Origin: a virus
Lineage: Duplodnaviria > Heunggongvirae > Uroviricota > Caudoviricetes
Length of the DNA: 19,238 nucleotides
Virus record (IMG/VR): IMGVR_UViG_2671181127_000002
Reading direction: 5' to 3' (one strand)
Every line of letters begins with the position of its first letter. The first letter of the stretch is position 1. The position numbers were made by a program, and so were the translations under genes. The notes beneath the pieces were generated by a model. It had not been told where the DNA came from, ran no database searches, and worked only from the letters and a program-made list of their open reading frames with translations. This document shows positions 1 to 4,344 of the stretch, one piece after another.

Positions 1-6
1 TACCAG

Positions 7-213
7 ATGGAAAAAATCACAACAGGTGTGTCATACACCACGTCAGCGGTGGGAACGGGCTACTGGTTCCTGCAGTTGCTGGACAGGGTTTCCCCGTCTC
101 AGTGGGCGGCAATAGGCGTGCTGGGGAGTCTGCTGTTTGGTCTGCTGACATATCTGACGAACCTGTATTTCAAAATTAAAGAAGACCGGCGTAAGGCGGC
201 GCGGGGAGAGTAG
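7..213 (+). CDS. S: Class II holin (pinholin), phage 21 S-like; a longer antiholin start may lie upstream of the window
   Basis: 68-aa ORF with hydrophobic helices (YWFLQLL...[23 protein letters not shown]) and a charged C-terminal tail ([13 protein letters not shown]), closely matching my recollection of phage 21 S. It sits directly upstream of a SAR endolysin. The ATG at 7 is only 6 nt from the window edge, so any dual-start upstream codon cannot be seen. Confidence 0.85.
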
Positions 214-216
214 ACG

Positions 217-852
217 ATGAATAAACAATACGAACTGGTTGTTAAAGGGATAAATAATTACCCGGATAAGATTACTGTTACTGTGGCACTGGAAATTGCC
301 GGGCAGCCGTCGTTGTTGTCGCCATATGTGGCGATTAGTCTTGACCGTACTGAAGGTGCCACGCTGGAATTTTACGAAGCTGAGGCGAAAAAACAGGCGA
401 AGCAGTTTTTCATGGATATTGCTGCCGCTTTATGTGAAGGGGATGAGCAGTCGCCGGAAAAGCGCCCCATAATTTTAGAGGCGCAGGATGTGTTGATAAC
501 CTACAGAGGAAAACTACCGGGAATAATTACTGGTTCTCTGAAGACGCCACCGACGGCATTGCGGTCAAAAAACGATGATATTGAATCACGCATTGAAAAA
601 CTGGAGTGCTATATCGCTGAATTGAAAAAAAGCACCCCAACAAAAAATGAGGTGCTTGCAGCAGATGAAATGAAAGAAACTATTCTTGATCGCGCGGCGC
701 ATCTAAGCTGCGCTTCACGGTTGAAAGAGCATCTTCAGCGGCCTGAAGAAAAACGCCGCGATGAGCAGTTCGCGGCGTTTTACGATTATTGCATTGAAGT
801 TACTCGCAGGAATTTTGTGAAGGCTTTTGAGGAGAGTAAATCTCTTCAGTAA
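217..852 (+). CDS. Hypothetical protein (211 aa), cargo gene inserted between holin and endolysin
   Basis: Intact ORF whose ATG is 3 nt after the holin stop (TAG 211..213), with a GGGGAGAG Shine-Dalgarno-like sequence upstream. It is AT-richer than the flanking phage genes. There is no signal peptide or TM segment; the C-terminal half is charged and helical. I recognise no family. Confidence 0.6.
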   Translation: MNKQYELVVKGINNYPDKITVTVALEIAGQPSLLSPYVAISLDRTEGATLEFYEAEAKKQAKQFFMDIAAALCEGDEQSPEKRPIILEAQDVLITYRGKLPGIITGSLKTPPTALRSKNDDIESRIEKLECYIAELKKSTPTKNEVLAADEMKETILDRAAHLSCASRLKEHLQRPEEKRRDEQFAAFYDYCIEVTRRNFVKAFEESKSLQ

Positions 853-1060
853 GCTTAATGGCGGACGCTGCAATTAATTCAGGAAGGTCCGCAAGGTCAT
901 CTGTCAGTGGGAATGATGAAAAATCGGCGGCAGTTCTGTTAAGAATTGCTTTAACTAATTCCTTTTCCTCATCCGGCAACACGTTGATTAGAGCTACGAC
1001 TGCTTGCCTGAGTGCGATTAAATCAGCAAAAGTTTGTTTTGGTAGATTTGGATAATCCAT
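800..1060 (-). CDS. Hypothetical small acidic protein (86 aa), convergent with and overlapping the 3' end of the 211-aa ORF
   Basis: Taken from the 800..1285 minus-strand ORF, starting at the internal Met (MDYPNLPKQ...) because that ATG (revcomp of 1058..1060) is preceded by GAGGTG at good spacing. Codon usage is AT-rich and the protein is acidic. The longer ORF would run antisense into the endolysin start, so the upstream extension is rejected. Confidence 0.4.
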   Translation of the reverse strand: MDYPNLPKQTFADLIALRQAVVALINVLPDEEKELVKAILNRTAADFSSFPLTDDLADLPELIAASAIKLTEEIYSPQKPSQNSCE

Positions 1061-1171
1061 AGTCACCTCTGTGTTTATCAGATTGACATACCCTGGCCAG
1101 CGCCCACCACTGGCGGGGTGAAGGCTTAACATATCCAGGGATTCGGAACCGATAAATCCTGATAAATATCC

Positions 1172-1705
1172 ATGAACGCAAAAATCAAATACGGCCTGTC
1201 GGCTGCCGTTCTGGCGCTGATTGCCGCAGGGGCTTCTGCGCCTGAAATTCTCGACCAGTTTCTGGATGAAAAGGAAGGTAACCACACCACGGCATACCGT
1301 GATGGTGCAGGTATCTGGACCATCTGCCGTGGTGCCATCATGGTGGATGGCAAACCTGTCGTTCCGGGCATGAAGTTGTCGAAGGAAAAATGCGACCAGG
1401 TTAACGCCATTGAGCGTGATAAAGCGCTGGCGTGGGTGGAGAAAAACATCAGAGTGCCGCTGACCGAACCCCAGAAAGCGGGGATCGCGTCATTCTGTCC
1501 GTATAACATTGGTCCCGGTAAGTGTTTCCCGTCGACGTTTTATAAACGAATTAATGCAGGCGATCGCAGGGGAGCGTGTGAGGCGATTCGCTGGTGGATT
1601 AAGGACGGTGGCAGGGACTGCCGTATCCGCTCAAATAACTGTTACGGTCAGGTATCCCGGCGTGATCAGGAGAGCGCGCTGGCGTGCTGGGGAATCGACA
1701 GATAA
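1172..1705 (+). CDS. R: SAR endolysin (T4-lysozyme-like muramidase, GH24), phage 21 R-like
   Basis: The N-terminus has a weakly hydrophobic Ala/Gly-rich signal-anchor-release segment (YGLSAAVLALIAAGASAP). It is followed by the lysozyme catalytic spacing E-x8-D-x5-T (EGNHTTAYRDGAGIWT). It sits in the lysis cassette with a pinholin, which is the usual partner. Confidence 0.9.
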   Translation: MNAKIKYGLSAAVLALIAAGASAPEILDQFLDEKEGNHTTAYRDGAGIWTICRGAIMVDGKPVVPGMKLSKEKCDQVNAIERDKALAWVEKNIRVPLTEPQKAGIASFCPYNIGPGKCFPSTFYKRINAGDRRGACEAIRWWIKDGGRDCRIRSNNCYGQVSRRDQESALACWGIDR

Positions 1706-1799
1706 GAAGAATATTTTGCTGAAAAATGACGTTGGCCAACGCGGGCGGATAACACGAAATCCTGCGAACTGGCAAAACCTAAGTGAATAAAAGTAAAAA

Positions 1800-1835
1800 C
1801 CCCGTTTGTTGGCAGCAAGCGGGGTTTTGTGTTTC
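1800..1835 (+). terminator. Rho-independent terminator-like hairpin downstream of the endolysin
   Basis: A 9-bp stem (CCCCGTTTG / CAAGCGGGG, one G-U pair) with a 7-nt loop, followed by TTTTGTGTTT and preceded by an A-run. Confidence 0.55.
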
Positions 1836-1861
1836 TGACCTTGGATAAGGCAAGGGAGAAC

Positions 1862-2044
1862 ATGGAAAAGTATAAACGAATTCTGTTGAGGTTGACTATG
1901 AAAAACGGCCTTGAACTGAAAGCGCCTGTAACTGATGACATCAGCAGAGCGCTGGCTTTTGCTATTAAGTGGGTGGCGGTCGGTATTGCTGTGTCTCCGA
2001 TGCTGTATGGACTGGCAAAACTGGTCATTGCGTTGAAATCGTGA
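1862..2044 (+). CDS. Hypothetical small membrane protein (60 aa) between endolysin and Rz
   Basis: ATG at 1862 is preceded by AGGGAGA. The N-terminus is amphipathic and basic; the C-terminus has a hydrophobic segment (FAIKWVAVGIAVSPMLYGLAKLVIAL). The ORF track lists it with a GTG start at 1829 that lies inside the terminator tail, so I prefer 1862. Confidence 0.4.
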   Translation: MEKYKRILLRLTMKNGLELKAPVTDDISRALAFAIKWVAVGIAVSPMLYGLAKLVIALKS

Positions 2045-2056
2045 AGAGGATTAAGC

Positions 2057-2188
2057 ATGTCAGACAAGCTCATAACGCTGGCGAAGATCCTCTGTGTAAT
2101 CGTCGGCATTTCATTTTCACTAATGCTGGTTGCTATTTTTCTTTCCCTGGGCTGGATGATGTTGTCTTCGTCGGGGATGCTGGGGTGA
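2057..2188 (+). CDS. Hypothetical hydrophobic peptide (43 aa), not in the ORF track because it is under 60 aa
   Basis: My own translation from ATG 2057 gives [43 protein letters not shown] with stop TGA at 2186..2188. AAGAGGA sits 5 nt upstream. The start is 12 nt after the previous stop and the stop is 7 nt before the Rz start. It is a single-TM-like peptide. Confidence 0.35.
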
Positions 2189-2195
2189 GGGGGAT

Positions 2196-2663
2196 ATGAA
2201 CCGTGTTCTGTGTGTGGTGATTATTGTCCTGCTGGTGGCCTGTGGTGCGCTTAGTCTGGGGCTGAATCATTACCGCGATAACGCCATCACCTACAAAGCG
2301 CAGCGAGATAAAAAAGCCAGAGAGCTGGAGCTGGCAAACGCAACCATTACTGATATGCAGGTGCGCCAGCGCGATGTTGCTGCGCTCGATGCAAAATACT
2401 CGAGGGAATTAGCTGATGCGAGAGCTGAAAATGAAACTCTGCGTGCTGATGTTGCCGCTGGTCGTAAGCGCCTGCGGATCAACGCCACCTGCCACGGTAC
2501 CGTGCGTGAAGCCACCGGCACCTCCGGCGTGGATAATGCAACCGGCCCCCGACTGGCAGACACCGCTGAACGGGATTATTTCACCCTCAGAGAGCGGTTG
2601 ATGCTGATGCAGAAGCAGCTGGAAGGGGCACAGGACTATATCCGCACTCAGTGCCTGAATTAA
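2196..2663 (+). CDS. Rz: i-spanin Rz
   Basis: N-terminal TM segment followed by a coiled-coil periplasmic domain. Long stretches match lambda Rz as I recall it ([16 protein letters not shown]..., [12 protein letters not shown]..., [15 protein letters not shown]...MQKQLEG). Confidence 0.9.
2416..2601 (+). CDS. Rz1: o-spanin Rz1 (lipoprotein), embedded in the +1 frame of Rz
   Basis: Lies wholly inside Rz in another frame. It has a lipobox (LPLVVSAC) and a proline-rich mature part ([30 protein letters not shown]) that closely matches lambda Rz1. Confidence 0.85.
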
Positions 2664-2666
2664 CAG

Positions 2667-2691
2667 AGCCAGCTTAATCGCTGGCTTTTTC
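2667..2691 (+). terminator. Rho-independent terminator-like hairpin after Rz
   Basis: A 7-bp stem (AGCCAGC / GCTGGCT) with a 6-nt loop, followed by TTTTT, starting 4 nt after the Rz stop. Confidence 0.55.
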
Positions 2692-2738
2692 ATATCTGAA
2701 TTTCACCGCGCATCTCACGCGCATATCACATCCCCGAG

Positions 2739-2830
2739 CCTTTCAGAAAGTTGAGCCTGAGAACTGCCGTATATGGTGGCGACCATCTCGGGGCGGCTTT
2801 TCTGTGAGACAGGCTCAATTTTCTGAAAGG
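2739..2830 (+). promoter_or_regulatory. 21-bp imperfect inverted repeat with a 50-bp spacer directly upstream of the Rha-like gene; right arm overlaps its ribosome-binding region
   Basis: CCTTTCAGAAAGTTGAGCCTG at 2739..2759 against CAGGCTCAATTTTCTGAAAGG at 2810..2830 matches as a reverse complement at 20 of 21 positions. The right arm ends 9 nt before the ATG at 2840. A short direct repeat CGCGCAT(CTCA)CGCGCAT lies just upstream at about 2707..2724. Confidence 0.4.
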
Positions 2831-2839
2831 TAAAACGCG

Positions 2840-3388
2840 ATGAACTATCCGACGATTGTTGACGGTATTGATTTTCGCCAACTGGTAACAGCGGCAGATG
2901 GCGAACCAATAACAGACTCTTTTCAGATCGCTAAGGCGTTTGGTAAGCGTCATGCGGACGTATTGAGGGCGCTGAAAAATTGCCATTGCTCTGAAGATTT
3001 CCGGAGAGCGCATTTTTGCGTTGCCGAAAAAATCAATGAGTTAGGGATTTTCGACAAGAAGCAGATTTACTACCGCATGGACTTTAGCGGCTTCGTTATG
3101 CTGGTTATGGGATTTAACGGGGCAAAAGCTGATGCCGTTAAAGAAGCCTATATTAATGCCTTTAACTGGATGTCCGCTGAACTCCGTAAGTTCAGTGAAA
3201 GTTATGAAGCTGAACGCAACGCTGTAATGCTGGAGTACATGAAAGAGAAAGATGTTGCCAGTATGTCAGGTCGTTTGCTCAATCGCTGGGGCAGGGTGAA
3301 GAAGCCTCAGTTGCTGGCAAGGCTGGACAGGCTGGAGCAGCAGGGGCAGATTGCGTTACCCGGATTTGATAAAGGCATTTCAGCCTGA
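2840..3388 (+). CDS. rha: Rha-family phage regulatory protein (Phage_pRha-like N-terminal domain), often annotated as antirepressor-like
   Basis: The N-terminal region carries the signature I associate with Phage_pRha/Ant N-terminal domains (VTDSFQIAKAFGKRHADVLRALKN). It is AT-richer than the structural genes and sits between Rz and cos, where lambda carries bor. Confidence 0.7.
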   Translation: MNYPTIVDGIDFRQLVTAADGEPITDSFQIAKAFGKRHADVLRALKNCHCSEDFRRAHFCVAEKINELGIFDKKQIYYRMDFSGFVMLVMGFNGAKADAVKEAYINAFNWMSAELRKFSESYEAERNAVMLEYMKEKDVASMSGRLLNRWGRVKKPQLLARLDRLEQQGQIALPGFDKGISA

Positions 3389-3639
3389 CATAGCCATGCG
3401 CCGTATCGTCGCCGTATTCCTGCATTAACAGAGACCGCAGCCCGACAGGGAGACTCCTCTGCGCGAGTGTGCGGGGATAATCAAAAACGATGCACACCGG
3501 GGTTTACCGCGTTAACGGAGCGCGGCGTTGTCCCCTCATAGTCGCTCGTCCGGTGCGATGGTGGAAGAAACTGGATTTTGTTGCAACTGATAACCATTAT
3601 CATTTTCTCGGGTCCTTTCCGGCATATGGACCCGTTACG

Positions 3640-3651
3640 GGGCGGCGACCT
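3640..3651 (+). other. cosN: cosN cohesive-end site (GGGCGGCGACCT), internal to the prophage
   Basis: The 12-nt lambda cohesive-end sequence is present exactly, in lambda-like context (GTTACG before it, CGCGGGTTTTCGCTATTTATGAAAATTTTCCGG after it), about 195 bp upstream of the Nu1 start. Confidence 0.85.
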
Positions 3652-3688
3652 CGCGGGTTTTCGCTATTTATGAAAATTTTCCGGGATC

Positions 3689-3787
3689 CATGTCCGGTTT
3701 ATCTTCAAGTTAACTATATGAAAAATATAAAAACATGCTTTCCATGAACCGGACATGCGCAAAAAATAGACACTAAAACCGGACATG
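3689..3787 (+). promoter_or_regulatory. cosB: cosB-like region: three copies of AACCGGACATG arranged as R3 (inverted), an AT-rich IHF-like spacer, then R2 and R1 (direct)
   Basis: The motif occurs inverted at 3689..3699 and direct at 3747..3757 and 3777..3787. An AT-rich stretch lies between the first and second copies. Offsets from cosN and from the Nu1 start mirror lambda's R3-I1-R2-R1 layout, but the repeat sequence is not lambda's. Confidence 0.55.
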
Positions 3788-3834
3788 ACCGGTTTTGTTG
3801 TGATTGTGAGGTGAGAGTTTTTGCGAGGTGAGGA

Positions 3835-4344
3835 GTGGCTACGCAGACTGAAGTTGCCAGGCATTTAAGTCTGACCGATCGCCAGCTTCGCAGATTGCAG
3901 AAATTGCCGGGTGCCCCGATATCGAATAAGCGAGGGCAACTGGATCTGGATGCCTGGCGCGATTTTTACATATCGTATCTGAGAAGAAGTAAAAACGATG
4001 TGCCTGATGGCGATAGCGAAGACGACTATGAGGAGAAATTGCTTATTGCCAGATGGGAACTGACAGCAGAACAGGCTGTTACACAGCAGTTAAAAAATGA
4101 GGTGTCAAAAGGAAAACTTATTGACACCGGGTTCTGTATTTTTGCCCTCAGCAAGCTGGCAATGGCGTTATCCAGTACGCTTGATTCCATCCCTTTATCC
4201 ATGCAGCGACAGTTTCCTGATTTAACACCGCGCCATCTTGACCATCTGAAAACCCTTATTGCGAAGGGGGCAAATCAGTGTGCGCGGGCGGGGGATAAAT
4301 TACCGGATTTACTCGATGAATATATCAGAGCAACAACTGAATAA
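3835..4344 (+). CDS. nu1: Terminase small subunit (gpNu1-like)
   Basis: GTG start preceded by GAGGTGAGGA. The C-terminal two-thirds matches lambda Nu1 as I recall it (FCIFALSKLA...LSMQRQFPDL..RHLDHLK....LPDLLDEYI). The N-terminal DNA-binding region is divergent, consistent with the altered cosB repeats. Confidence 0.9.
   Translation: MATQTEVARHLSLTDRQLRRLQKLPGAPISNKRGQLDLDAWRDFYISYLRRSKNDVPDGDSEDDYEEKLLIARWELTAEQAVTQQLKNEVSKGKLIDTGFCIFALSKLAMALSSTLDSIPLSMQRQFPDLTPRHLDHLKTLIAKGANQCARAGDKLPDLLDEYIRATTE

Follow-up and report, generated by a model that had tools for sequence, protein, structure and literature searches.

A candidate terminator-first cassette of small inner-membrane protein genes between the endolysin and spanin genes of a lambdoid prophage

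The interval between endolysin R and the spanin genes

We analyzed a 19,238-nucleotide (nt) stretch of Caudoviricetes DNA (IMG/VR record IMGVR_UViG_2671181127_000002, hereafter the window), focusing on the 490 bp (positions 1706 to 2195) between the end of the endolysin gene R at 1705 and the start of the i-spanin gene Rz at 2196. The first 4.5 kb of the window is the lysis region of a lambdoid Escherichia coli prophage, and the STEC2018-607 chromosome matches the R-Rz interval and its flanks with 100% identity. An original prediction, made by a model from the letters alone, held that about 490 bp of extra DNA interrupts the direct R-to-Rz order of lambda and phage 21. The interval is present as described, and the direct order holds for the K-12 prophages DLP12 and Qin. 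Since R overlaps Rz in these two prophages, with zero insert, simple lambdoid cassettes lack the 490 bp, which is thus extra DNA here. The insert holds a predicted intrinsic terminator followed by two small open reading frames (ORFs), ORF1 and ORF2, which lie on the Rz strand and are tightly packed with Rz. Its features, including Shine-Dalgarno (SD) sequences and predicted transmembrane (TM) proteins, are as follows.

1172 to 1705, plus strand: signal-anchor-release (SAR)-type endolysin R, 177 amino acids (aa); Pfam Phage_lysozyme, E 3.1e-24; SAR-like N-terminal segment
1706 to 1795, plus strand: conserved 3' leader of R that runs into an A-rich tract (1791 to 1799)
1785 to 1862, minus strand: predicted cis-antisense RNA of about 75 nt
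1800 to 1836, either strand: bidirectional intrinsic terminator, GC stem CCCCG (1800 to 1804) and CGGGG (1820 to 1824)
1839 to 1858, plus strand: short SD stem CCTTG (1839 to 1843) and CAAGG (1851 to 1855), overlapping the ORF1 SD AAGGGAG (1852 to 1858)
1862 to 2044, plus strand: ORF1, predicted 60-aa bitopic inner-membrane protein; phrog_1115, E 1.4e-42, residues 1 to 60
1869 to 1898, minus strand: sigma70-like promoter, -35 TAGTCA (1898 to 1893), 18-nt spacer, -10 TATACT (1874 to 1869), inside ORF1 codons 3 to 13
2044 to 2050, plus strand: ORF2 SD AAGAGGA, 6 nt before the ATG, overlapping the ORF1 stop codon (2042 to 2044)
2057 to 2188, plus strand: ORF2, predicted 43-aa single-TM peptide; phrog_4906, E 3.5e-22, residues 1 to 43
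2187 to 2194, plus strand: Rz SD GAGGGGGA, overlapping the ORF2 stop codon
2196 to 2663, plus strand: i-spanin Rz; Pfam Phage_lysis, E 1.2e-50

ORF2 starts 12 nt after ORF1, and its stop codon (2186 to 2188) lies 7 nt before the Rz ATG at 2196, the gap that had been predicted together with the AAGAGGA ribosome-binding site. The SD sequences of ORF2 and Rz thus each overlap the stop codon of the preceding gene. In the identical STEC2018-607 record, the Prokaryotic Genome Annotation Pipeline (PGAP) names R a "lysozyme" and calls both small ORFs at matching coordinates as "hypothetical proteins" (WP_052834940.1 and WP_062850938.1).

The leader (1706 to 1795) is alignable between E. coli and Salmonella loci and lies behind SAR-lysozyme and GH19 endolysins alike. 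In many E. coli genomes it is found without the rest of the insert (query positions 3 to 155). The leader gave no Rfam family match and no promoter; the best plus-strand promoter candidate by eye, ATGACG-16-GATAAC, fails the -10 rule.

The terminator and the small-ORF cassette

The hairpin described earlier as intrinsic-terminator-like shows every sequence feature of a terminator. A terminator scan returned a 15-pair hairpin at 1796 to 1828, followed by the T-rich tail GTGTTTCTGA / GTGTTTCT. The hairpin has a dG of -15.6 kcal/mol, with 8 A among the 10 nt on the 5' side of the stem and 9 T within the next 12 nt; the T-tract TTTTGTGTTTCT occupies 1825 to 1836, and an A-tract lies on the 5' side. 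RNA folding gave a perfect stem (z = -2.7 for the region).

Comparison of 11 cassette units with differing upstream neighbors showed that all of them have a GC hairpin of -13 to -19 kcal/mol 20 to 60 nt ahead of the small ORF, flanked by 6 to 9 A per 10 nt on the 5' side and 6 to 9 T per 12 nt on the 3' side. RNAalifold found 12 consensus pairs among the 11 hairpins, 5 of them with compensatory double changes, and three A-U flank pairs were retained in all 11. The covarying stems and the retained A-U flanks are the signature of a bidirectional intrinsic terminator under selection. In one related locus (L007), the minus-strand terminator was also called by the scan tool. The hairpin lies upstream of ORF1-type genes, or of genes of a third family (ORF3, see below), after SAR lysozyme, GH19 endolysin, Ant, an M15-cassette ORF and tail-fiber genes, as well as at a portal-proximal site. 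Judged by these sequence contexts, the terminator belongs to the small-ORF cassette, not to the endolysin. The predicted hairpin is real but is not incidental to the endolysin gene, as it travels with the small ORFs in the 11 contexts.

A second terminator-like hairpin was found right after Rz, within 2664 to 2839 (AGCCAGCTTAATCGCTGGCT and TTTTTCATATCTGAA), and a conserved leader (GCGCATCTCACGCGCAT...CCTTTCAG) separates it from the Rha-family gene downstream. L006 and Sakai Sp5 have this terminator-plus-leader at the R-Rz junction as well, in front of the Ant gene. The sharing of the element before Rha and Ant suggests that a terminator-first layout may be a general design of late-operon inserts.

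ORF1 and ORF2 as predicted membrane proteins under selection

The C-terminal TM segment proposed for ORF1 coincides with its best 19-residue Kyte-Doolittle window (1.90, residues 38 to 56), and ORF2 reaches 2.93; both values are above the usual TM threshold. Topology prediction gave a single pass for both proteins, with the N-terminal positive charge pointing to an N-in/C-out orientation; ORF1 has 8 lysine and arginine residues before the TM window and 1 after it. AlphaFold2 modeling of ORF1 from a 17-sequence alignment produced a helix at residues 2 to 15, a loop, and a long helix at 23 to 59 (mean predicted local distance difference test score 78, about 90 across the long helix). The model suggests a cytoplasmic amphipathic helix, a loop carrying MK[ND]G-x-E-x-x-AP, and one long TM helix with the motif AFAI[KR]. 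An alternative in-frame start of ORF1 exists at ATG 1898, with GAGG at 1888 to 1891.

Selection was evaluated from 176 related loci, from which 163 endolysin-to-Rz intervals (73 unique) were extracted. The ratios of nonsynonymous to synonymous differences (pN/pS) given here were pooled over related, recombining alleles and are indicative values, not formal tests. None of the 27 distinct nucleotide alleles of ORF1 is broken. The pooled Nei-Gojobori pN/pS of ORF1 was 0.21 in frame versus 0.81 and 2.95 in the other frames, and its variable columns at codon positions 1, 2 and 3 numbered 4, 5 and 14. For ORF2, 172 ungapped tblastn matches represented 23 alleles, all of them intact, while frame +1 contained stop codons in 23 of 23. 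The pN/pS of ORF2 was 0.51 in frame versus 0.77 and 1.34 out of frame, and 0.36 versus 2.49 and 0.88 for residues 2 to 24. In the protein alignments of both ORFs, covering Escherichia and Salmonella, the hydrophobic replacements are conservative; even a divergent ORF2 allele (L008, about 84% nucleotide identity) retains a hydrophobic peptide through conservative changes. The allele patterns argue clearly for purifying selection on ORF1 and moderately for selection on ORF2, so the small ORFs are not the unconserved frames that would have undone the original prediction.

In ORF1 the invariant core is FAI..A, within the motif AFAI[KR]xVA, and in ORF2 it is SDKLI...VI...SF. Distant ORF1 members retain KY-x-R...MK[ND]G-x-E-x-[DE]AP...A[FWY]A[IL][KR]. 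The ORF1 C terminus comes in two forms, a long one (...YG[LI]AKLI.ALKS) and a short one ending in RWW, which are connected by a natural chimera (P0292). The short form, ORF1b, is ECs_1094 of Sakai Sp4.

An overlapping frame (1969 to 2199) had been named as the possible translated alternative. It is rejected as coding because its pN/pS, as "frame 2" of both genes, is 1.3 to 5.9; it also contains no hydrophobic segment. The only PHROG match of this frame, phrog_3246, is a chimera derived from the ST131-type arrangement, in which an ORF1 fragment follows ORF2.

Neither ORF has a match in Pfam, NCBIfam or PADLOC, toxin and defense families included, or a relative among solved structures (PDB). Both phrog_1115 and phrog_4906 are labeled "unknown function," and database names are "hypothetical" or "transmembrane protein." No holin or antiholin family matched either protein (none in Pfam, only the families of "unknown function" in PHROGs), nor did any annotated lysis family in the Pfam, PHROGs and PDB searches, which included no direct comparison with Mu gp25. 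An apparent ORF1-ORF2 paralogy in hhalign was discarded because it arose from a fusion protein (P0266) among the aligned sequences. We found no literature on these peptides, on small ORFs between R and Rz, or on the Sakai tags ECs1094, ECs1966 and ECs57xx.

A shuffling array of at least three peptide families

The comparison with homologous cassettes that had been proposed shows that the insert varies: the endolysin-to-Rz interval ranges from 0 to 1424 bp in 73 unique variants. The two tandem peptides of the original prediction are real, but they represent a single layout of an array that shuffles members of three or more peptide families. Directly before Rz, and behind three unrelated endolysin types, such arrays contain one to four peptides, in the following architectures.

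Terminator-ORF1-ORF2-Rz, the majority
Terminator-ORF1b-Rz
Terminator-ORF3-Rz
Terminator-ORF3-ORF2-Rz
ORF1-ORF2-ORF1short-ORF1b-Rz, in which the GTG start of the short ORF1 overlaps the ORF2 stop
M15 peptidase-Ant-ORF2-Rz
ORF1-ORF2-DNA methyltransferase-Rz

ORF3, the third family, has the pattern W-K-F-[IL]-L-[IV]-W, is 31 to 45 aa long, and is often unannotated. In L003 and L007, an unannotated small ORF of this family (...DFSKLIRELRLMISQLPNWKFLLVWSIPFLWVVSQLIVAIKG) lies at about 1690 to 1790, before ORF2; it is related to the 45-aa ORF of L005 and the second small ORF of L186. Several third-family members end in IRWW like the short ORF1 form, even where a gene other than Rz follows. In L012 and L024 (interval positions 493 to 1424), ORF2 and Rz are separated by a DNA-methyltransferase-like ORF of about 310 aa with a DPPY motif, which indicates that the junction accepts large cargo too.

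Of 5426 complete E. coli genomes, 990 (about 18%) matched the 490-bp insert with at least 80% coverage, and 2094 (about 39%) contained part of it. Tandem paralogous arrays occur, with up to 11 to 12 copies per genome. In Salmonella, ORF1 immediately precedes Rz where the upstream gene encodes a GH19 endolysin, and likewise where it encodes Ant. The cassette is carried by late operons of temperate phages of Escherichia and Salmonella, including plaque-forming phages (PhiR12_3 and others) and Shiga toxin (Stx) phages, and homologs of both families are limited to Escherichia, Shigella and Salmonella. An exhaustive ORF1 profile search across 1.84 billion representatives returned 23 matches only, and tblastn found ORF1 in only 14 phage records. 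ORF2-family sequences were found by tblastn in 276 of 50,697 phage records, almost all of them Stx phages, mostly without annotation; in these records the gene immediately precedes Rz, with ant on its other side. Two scans of genome contigs for cross-species loci gave nothing confirmable.

In Sakai, the ORF2 family is represented by ECs_5707, ECs_5713, ECs_5722, ECs_5730, ECs_5732 and ECs_1966 (Sp5, Sp6, Sp9, Sp10, Sp11 and Sp12), always between ant and Rz in the six prophages; ECs_5707 belongs to the Stx2 phage Sp5. The ATG of the family member before Rz in Sakai (L176, 8383 to 8529; L177, 1325 to 1471; L178, L179, L180 and L183) overlaps the ant stop codon (MGWLMISDKL...).

Elements that may silence the cassette

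A consensus scan found no plus-strand promoter-like site within positions 1 to 4000. The sole promoter-like site near the insert is the minus-strand site TAGTCA-18-TATACT inside ORF1. Other units carry minus-strand sites TGGACA-18-TATACT (L004), TTGGCC-16-TATACT (L094) and TAGTCA-18-TATAAT (L185), being closer to consensus in L004 (-35 TGGACA) and L185 (-10 TATAAT); unrelated minus-strand sites occur in L005, L007 and the second unit of L186. When the promoter rule was re-implemented on the 180 nt after each hairpin in the 11 units, with the expectation taken from shuffles, a minus-strand match, pointing at the hairpin, was found in 9 of 11 units, where 1.4 were expected, and a plus-strand match in 0 of 11. 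The matches reach just 9 to 10 of 12 consensus positions, and six of the nine share one homologous site, leaving about four positive among six independent cases (rough binomial p about 0.003). The evidence across units is suggestive of an antisense promoter, not proof of one.

The nucleotide sequence of ORF1 around this site is unusually conserved. Codons 3 to 18 are nearly invariant at synonymous sites, E. coli versus Salmonella included: all 48 of 48 nt are identical between the window and the Salmonella alleles, while roughly a quarter of the remaining positions differ. Such suppressed synonymous variation is consistent with an element at the DNA level that overlaps these codons. Combining the promoter and the terminator, we predict a cis-antisense RNA that would span the ORF1 start codon and SD and fold into a 5' stem-loop followed by the terminator (dG -20.2 kcal/mol, z -3.0).

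The ORF1 SD is itself occluded in the predicted folds. The minimum free energy fold of 1825 to 1870 (dG -12.7 kcal/mol) pairs the T-tract with the ORF1 SD and AUG, and the short SD stem recurs with other loops or arms in L008, L091, L092, L004, L005, L186a and L186b. In L091 to L093 and L004, a 24-nt insertion between the SD stem and the ORF1 start creates an 8-codon upstream mini-ORF (ATGTGTAGGGAGGTGTGTTCCCTGTGA); its stop codon overlaps the ORF1 GTG start, and it may be a leader peptide or a coupling device.

Rfam returned no match at gathering thresholds over the whole window. A rimP leader hit in 1600 to 2300 scored below threshold (25.6 bits versus 47), was driven by the terminator, and was rejected. 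Orphan peaks of Hfq cross-linking and analysis of cDNA (Hfq-CRAC) were taken from Tree et al. 2014, Table S2 (PMC4104026), and mapped on Sakai; none lies in the R-Rz intervals of Sp4, Sp5, Sp6, Sp9, Sp10, Sp11 or Sp12, including the Sp4 unit with the same terminator, the method detecting Hfq-bound RNAs only and in uninduced cells. The Pas small RNAs (sRNAs) and the AsxR and AgvB anti-sRNAs map upstream of the holin gene and were ruled out as counterparts.

Several of the mapped peaks lie elsewhere in the late regions. EcOnc11, EcOnc12 and EcOnc10 (Sakai NC_002695.2, 1946819 to 1946867, 1779522 to 1779569 and 2234239 to 2234287; L177 to L179) lie about 75 nt beyond Rz on the strand opposite to the late operon, 3' of a small YlcI/YnfO-like minus-strand gene. 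EcOnc33 maps inside nanS-p.

Neighboring genes of the lysis region

The other genes of the lysis region are listed below.

7 to 213: holin, phage-21-type class II (Phage_holin_2_1, E 6e-33)
217 to 852: YdfR/DUF1327 gene
about 800 to 1060, minus strand: ORF of phrog_2572, 86 aa (E 3.6e-50)
2416 to 2601, plus strand: o-spanin Rz1, embedded in Rz (Pfam Rz1, E 1.1e-21)
2840 to 3388: Rha-family gene, 182 aa (Phage_pRha and ORF11CD3 domains), with the small terminase subunit next

The YdfR/DUF1327 ORF is 211 aa long in the window versus about 103 to 114 aa in K-12 and ST131. Its Pfam domain spans residues 1 to 112 only, and the identical RefSeq record has a shorter PGAP version, an incomplete pseudogene. 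The phrog_2572 ORF, between the holin and YdfR genes and R, opposes the late-operon strand and is "hypothetical" in all related records. The Rha-family ORF is open and intact in the window; PGAP calls it frameshifted in the 100%-identical record.

Proposed role of the cassette and alternative explanations

We tentatively propose, as a reading that is quite possible but falls short of probable, that the 490 bp represents one copy of a mobile cassette that begins with a terminator and encodes small inner-membrane proteins; it would be gated by Q and multiply silenced in the lysogen, and its products would be membrane-active at lysis. With considerably more confidence, we take both ORFs to encode genuine late-expressed membrane proteins. 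As no plus-strand promoter was found, the peptides would be made only when Q-modified RNA polymerase passes the terminator, that is, late and alongside Rz and Rz1. Stray transcription in the lysogen would halt at the terminator, and any read-through mRNA would be poorly translated since its SD and AUG are paired. The antisense RNA of about 75 nt, started in ORF1 codons 3 to 13 and ended by the shared hairpin, would probably be a third lock. Three layers of silencing on tiny hydrophobic proteins suggest that the peptides are membrane-active and harmful. Function is the weakest step: the peptides would most likely act on the inner membrane late in the lytic cycle, for example by lowering the membrane potential, and a partial depolarization would advance pinholin and SAR-endolysin triggering or tune spanin action.

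Several observations weigh against this proposal. The antisense promoters match the consensus imperfectly and are partly homologous, and the Sakai intervals show no Hfq-CRAC peak. The pN/pS values are only indicative, and frame-specific constraint was not seen in the C-terminal half of ORF2 (0.58 versus 0.62 in frame +1). ORF1-family genes occur as tandem paralogs after the tailspike gene at a prophage end, after a tail-fiber assembly gene and next to a portal-like gene, which points to an autonomous module and not an obligatory partner of Rz; the lysis-cassette setting of the original prediction thus holds here but not for the ORF1 family as a whole, which was also found upstream of tail genes in metagenomic contigs. 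Furthermore, the presence of Ant and a DNA methyltransferase at the same R-Rz junction points to a general insertion hot spot.

The best-surviving alternative is a type I toxin-antitoxin (TA) system, in which ORF1, and perhaps ORF2, would be a toxin whose mRNA is present in the lysogen, with the minus-strand RNA as antitoxin, serving prophage stabilization or abortive infection. The peptides are small, hydrophobic and single-TM, and at 60 and 43 aa they are of the size of type I toxins (under about 60 aa). The candidate antisense promoter lies within the 5' coding region and faces the SD and start codon, as in SymR/SymE, and an occluded SD is typical of type I toxin mRNAs. The tandem, multicopy paralogous arrays also fit, and the differing loops of the SD stems among units could confer cognate specificity. 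However, a toxin transcribed from its own promoter in uninduced cells is hard to reconcile with the lack of a plus-strand promoter-like site and with a strong terminator 37 nt upstream of the start codon. Moreover, the proteins resemble no toxin or defense family in Pfam, NCBIfam or PADLOC, and a conserved cytoplasmic motif such as MK[ND]G-x-E-x-x-AP is unusual for a pore-forming toxin. We consider this alternative unlikely, though it retains some weight.

It is less likely still that the ORFs are lysogen-expressed morons, whose peptides would be made by the prophage for the benefit of the host, for example in superinfection exclusion by blocking DNA entry, in the manner of HK97 gp15, T4 Imm and Sie proteins. 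Extra genes do lie here between otherwise adjacent genes, with presence/absence polymorphism at a hot spot that also takes Ant and methyltransferase. ORF1 paralogs at the tail-fiber end of prophages occupy a classical moron site, the variable part of ORF2 is its periplasm-facing C-terminal half, and prevalence in E. coli genomes is high. Against this, the terminator is upstream, not downstream, no promoter faces the genes, the SD is sequestered, and the sole promoter-like element is antisense. The absence of a plus-strand promoter together with a recurrent minus-strand promoter speaks for genes that are tightly silenced in the lysogen and expressed late, rather than for a classical moron expressed from the lysogen.

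To a similarly low degree, the ORFs may be dedicated lysis proteins (an antiholin, a holin-like or releasin-like protein, or a spanin partner), with S21, the SAR domain of R, or the TM segment of Rz as their binding target. Both are small membrane proteins between R and Rz with one TM segment each, and the position before Rz is kept across SAR-lysozyme, GH19 and M15 cassettes. Their N-in/C-out topology is Rz-like, residues 10 to 16 of ORF2 (KILCVIV) resemble Rz residues 3 to 9 (RVLCVVI), and ORF1 has a conserved basic residue inside its TM segment (AFAI[KR]). Nevertheless, no holin or lysis family matched, DLP12 and Qin share the S, R and Rz types but are peptide-free, and ORF1-family genes are also found outside lysis cassettes. 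A search for co-variation with Rz was likewise negative, as the Rz proteins and their TM segments are alike whatever peptides precede them.

Finally, it is very improbable that one or both ORFs are nonfunctional, with ORF2 an untranslated remnant or a spacer for the Rz ribosome-binding site, or with 1969 to 2199 as the real gene: the unconstrained C-terminal half of ORF2, a few alleles with indels or truncations, and the openness of frame 1969 to 2199 in 21 of 23 ORF2 alleles would fit, but the ORF2 alleles are intact with a strong SD and a constrained N-terminal half, the divergent L008 allele is still hydrophobic, the rival frame evolves as noncoding sequence without a hydrophobic segment, and ORF1 is clearly constrained.

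Relation to known systems

The proposed Q-gated cassette shares with type I TA systems that have 5'-overlapping antisense RNAs (SymE/SymR; also Hok/Sok, Ibs/Sib and Zor/Orz) a very small product and heavy post-transcriptional control. SymE/SymR-type likeness extends to the putative antisense promoter, which lies in the 5' coding region and reads over the SD and the start codon, to the sequestered SD, and to multicopy, tandem paralogous units on mobile DNA. Unlike these systems, the cassette has no promoter for the toxin gene, and its expression should need Q antitermination past the upstream terminator. It is related to no described toxin family and carries a conserved cytoplasmic motif; both the antisense RNA and toxicity are putative here.

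In the sar/ant module of P22 immI, a short cis-antisense RNA from a promoter inside or next to the gene likewise covers the ribosome-binding site of a phage accessory gene, and Ant-family genes occupy the same R-Rz junction in Stx phages. The products differ, membrane peptides here and an antirepressor there, and the terminator at which the RNA predicted here would stop also serves the late transcript from upstream.

Lysis accessory membrane proteins (the S21-71 and S107 antiholins, T4 RI and RIII, P2 LysA, and the Mu releasin gp25) are alike in being small late inner-membrane proteins in or near lysis genes. The cassette, in contrast, has no detected homology to them, no dual-start motif, and no charged C-terminal tail: ORF2 ends in the uncharged SSSGMLG, and ORF1 ends in ALKS with its charge at the N terminus. 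The cassette families also occur outside lysis cassettes, and the cassettes of related prophages work without them. By sequence and tail features, the cassette is not a holin or antiholin.

Morons (bor, lom) and exclusion factors (HK97 gp15, T4 Imm) are alike in being extra late-gene DNA with a mosaic distribution and membrane products. A moron has its own promoter and a downstream terminator. With its terminator upstream and its sole promoter-like site antisense, the cassette is not a classical moron of the kind reportedly described by Juhala et al. in 2000 for lambdoid phages.

The convergent sRNA pairs AsxR/EcOnc27 and AgvB lie at prophage moron sites between PR' and the holin gene and are bound by Hfq (PMC4104026). 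Like them, the cassette has a bidirectional terminator in a lambdoid late region with a short candidate minus-strand RNA gene facing it. They differ in that those sRNAs have Rfam models, whereas the window has no Rfam match and the Sakai R-Rz intervals have no Hfq-CRAC peak.

Significance

Lambdoid lysis cassettes are textbook systems thought to be fully inventoried, with holin, endolysin and spanins. The genes described here are known only as hypothetical proteins, and the cassette architecture and the candidate antisense lock appear to be undescribed. Even on an ordinary reading, annotation is corrected, since ORF2, the 31-aa ORF3-type gene and the true ORF1b start are often missed.

A further idea, which we regard as speculative and rather doubtful, is that such cassettes form an unrecognized class of "antitermination-gated" membrane-toxin cassettes, each with a terminator, an occluded ribosome-binding site, a 30- to 60-aa peptide and a terminator-sharing antisense RNA. 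They would remain silent until Q read-through and shuffle among late-operon junctions, and the ORF2/ECs_5707 family, in nearly all Stx phages, would influence lysis and Shiga-toxin timing. If the antisense lock is true, it would represent a new coupling of a toxic peptide to phage antitermination, not to its own promoter, and would add a cis-antisense RNA family to prophage late regions. If the peptides alter membrane integrity or the timing of lysis, both burst size and the moment at which Shiga toxin is released would be affected.

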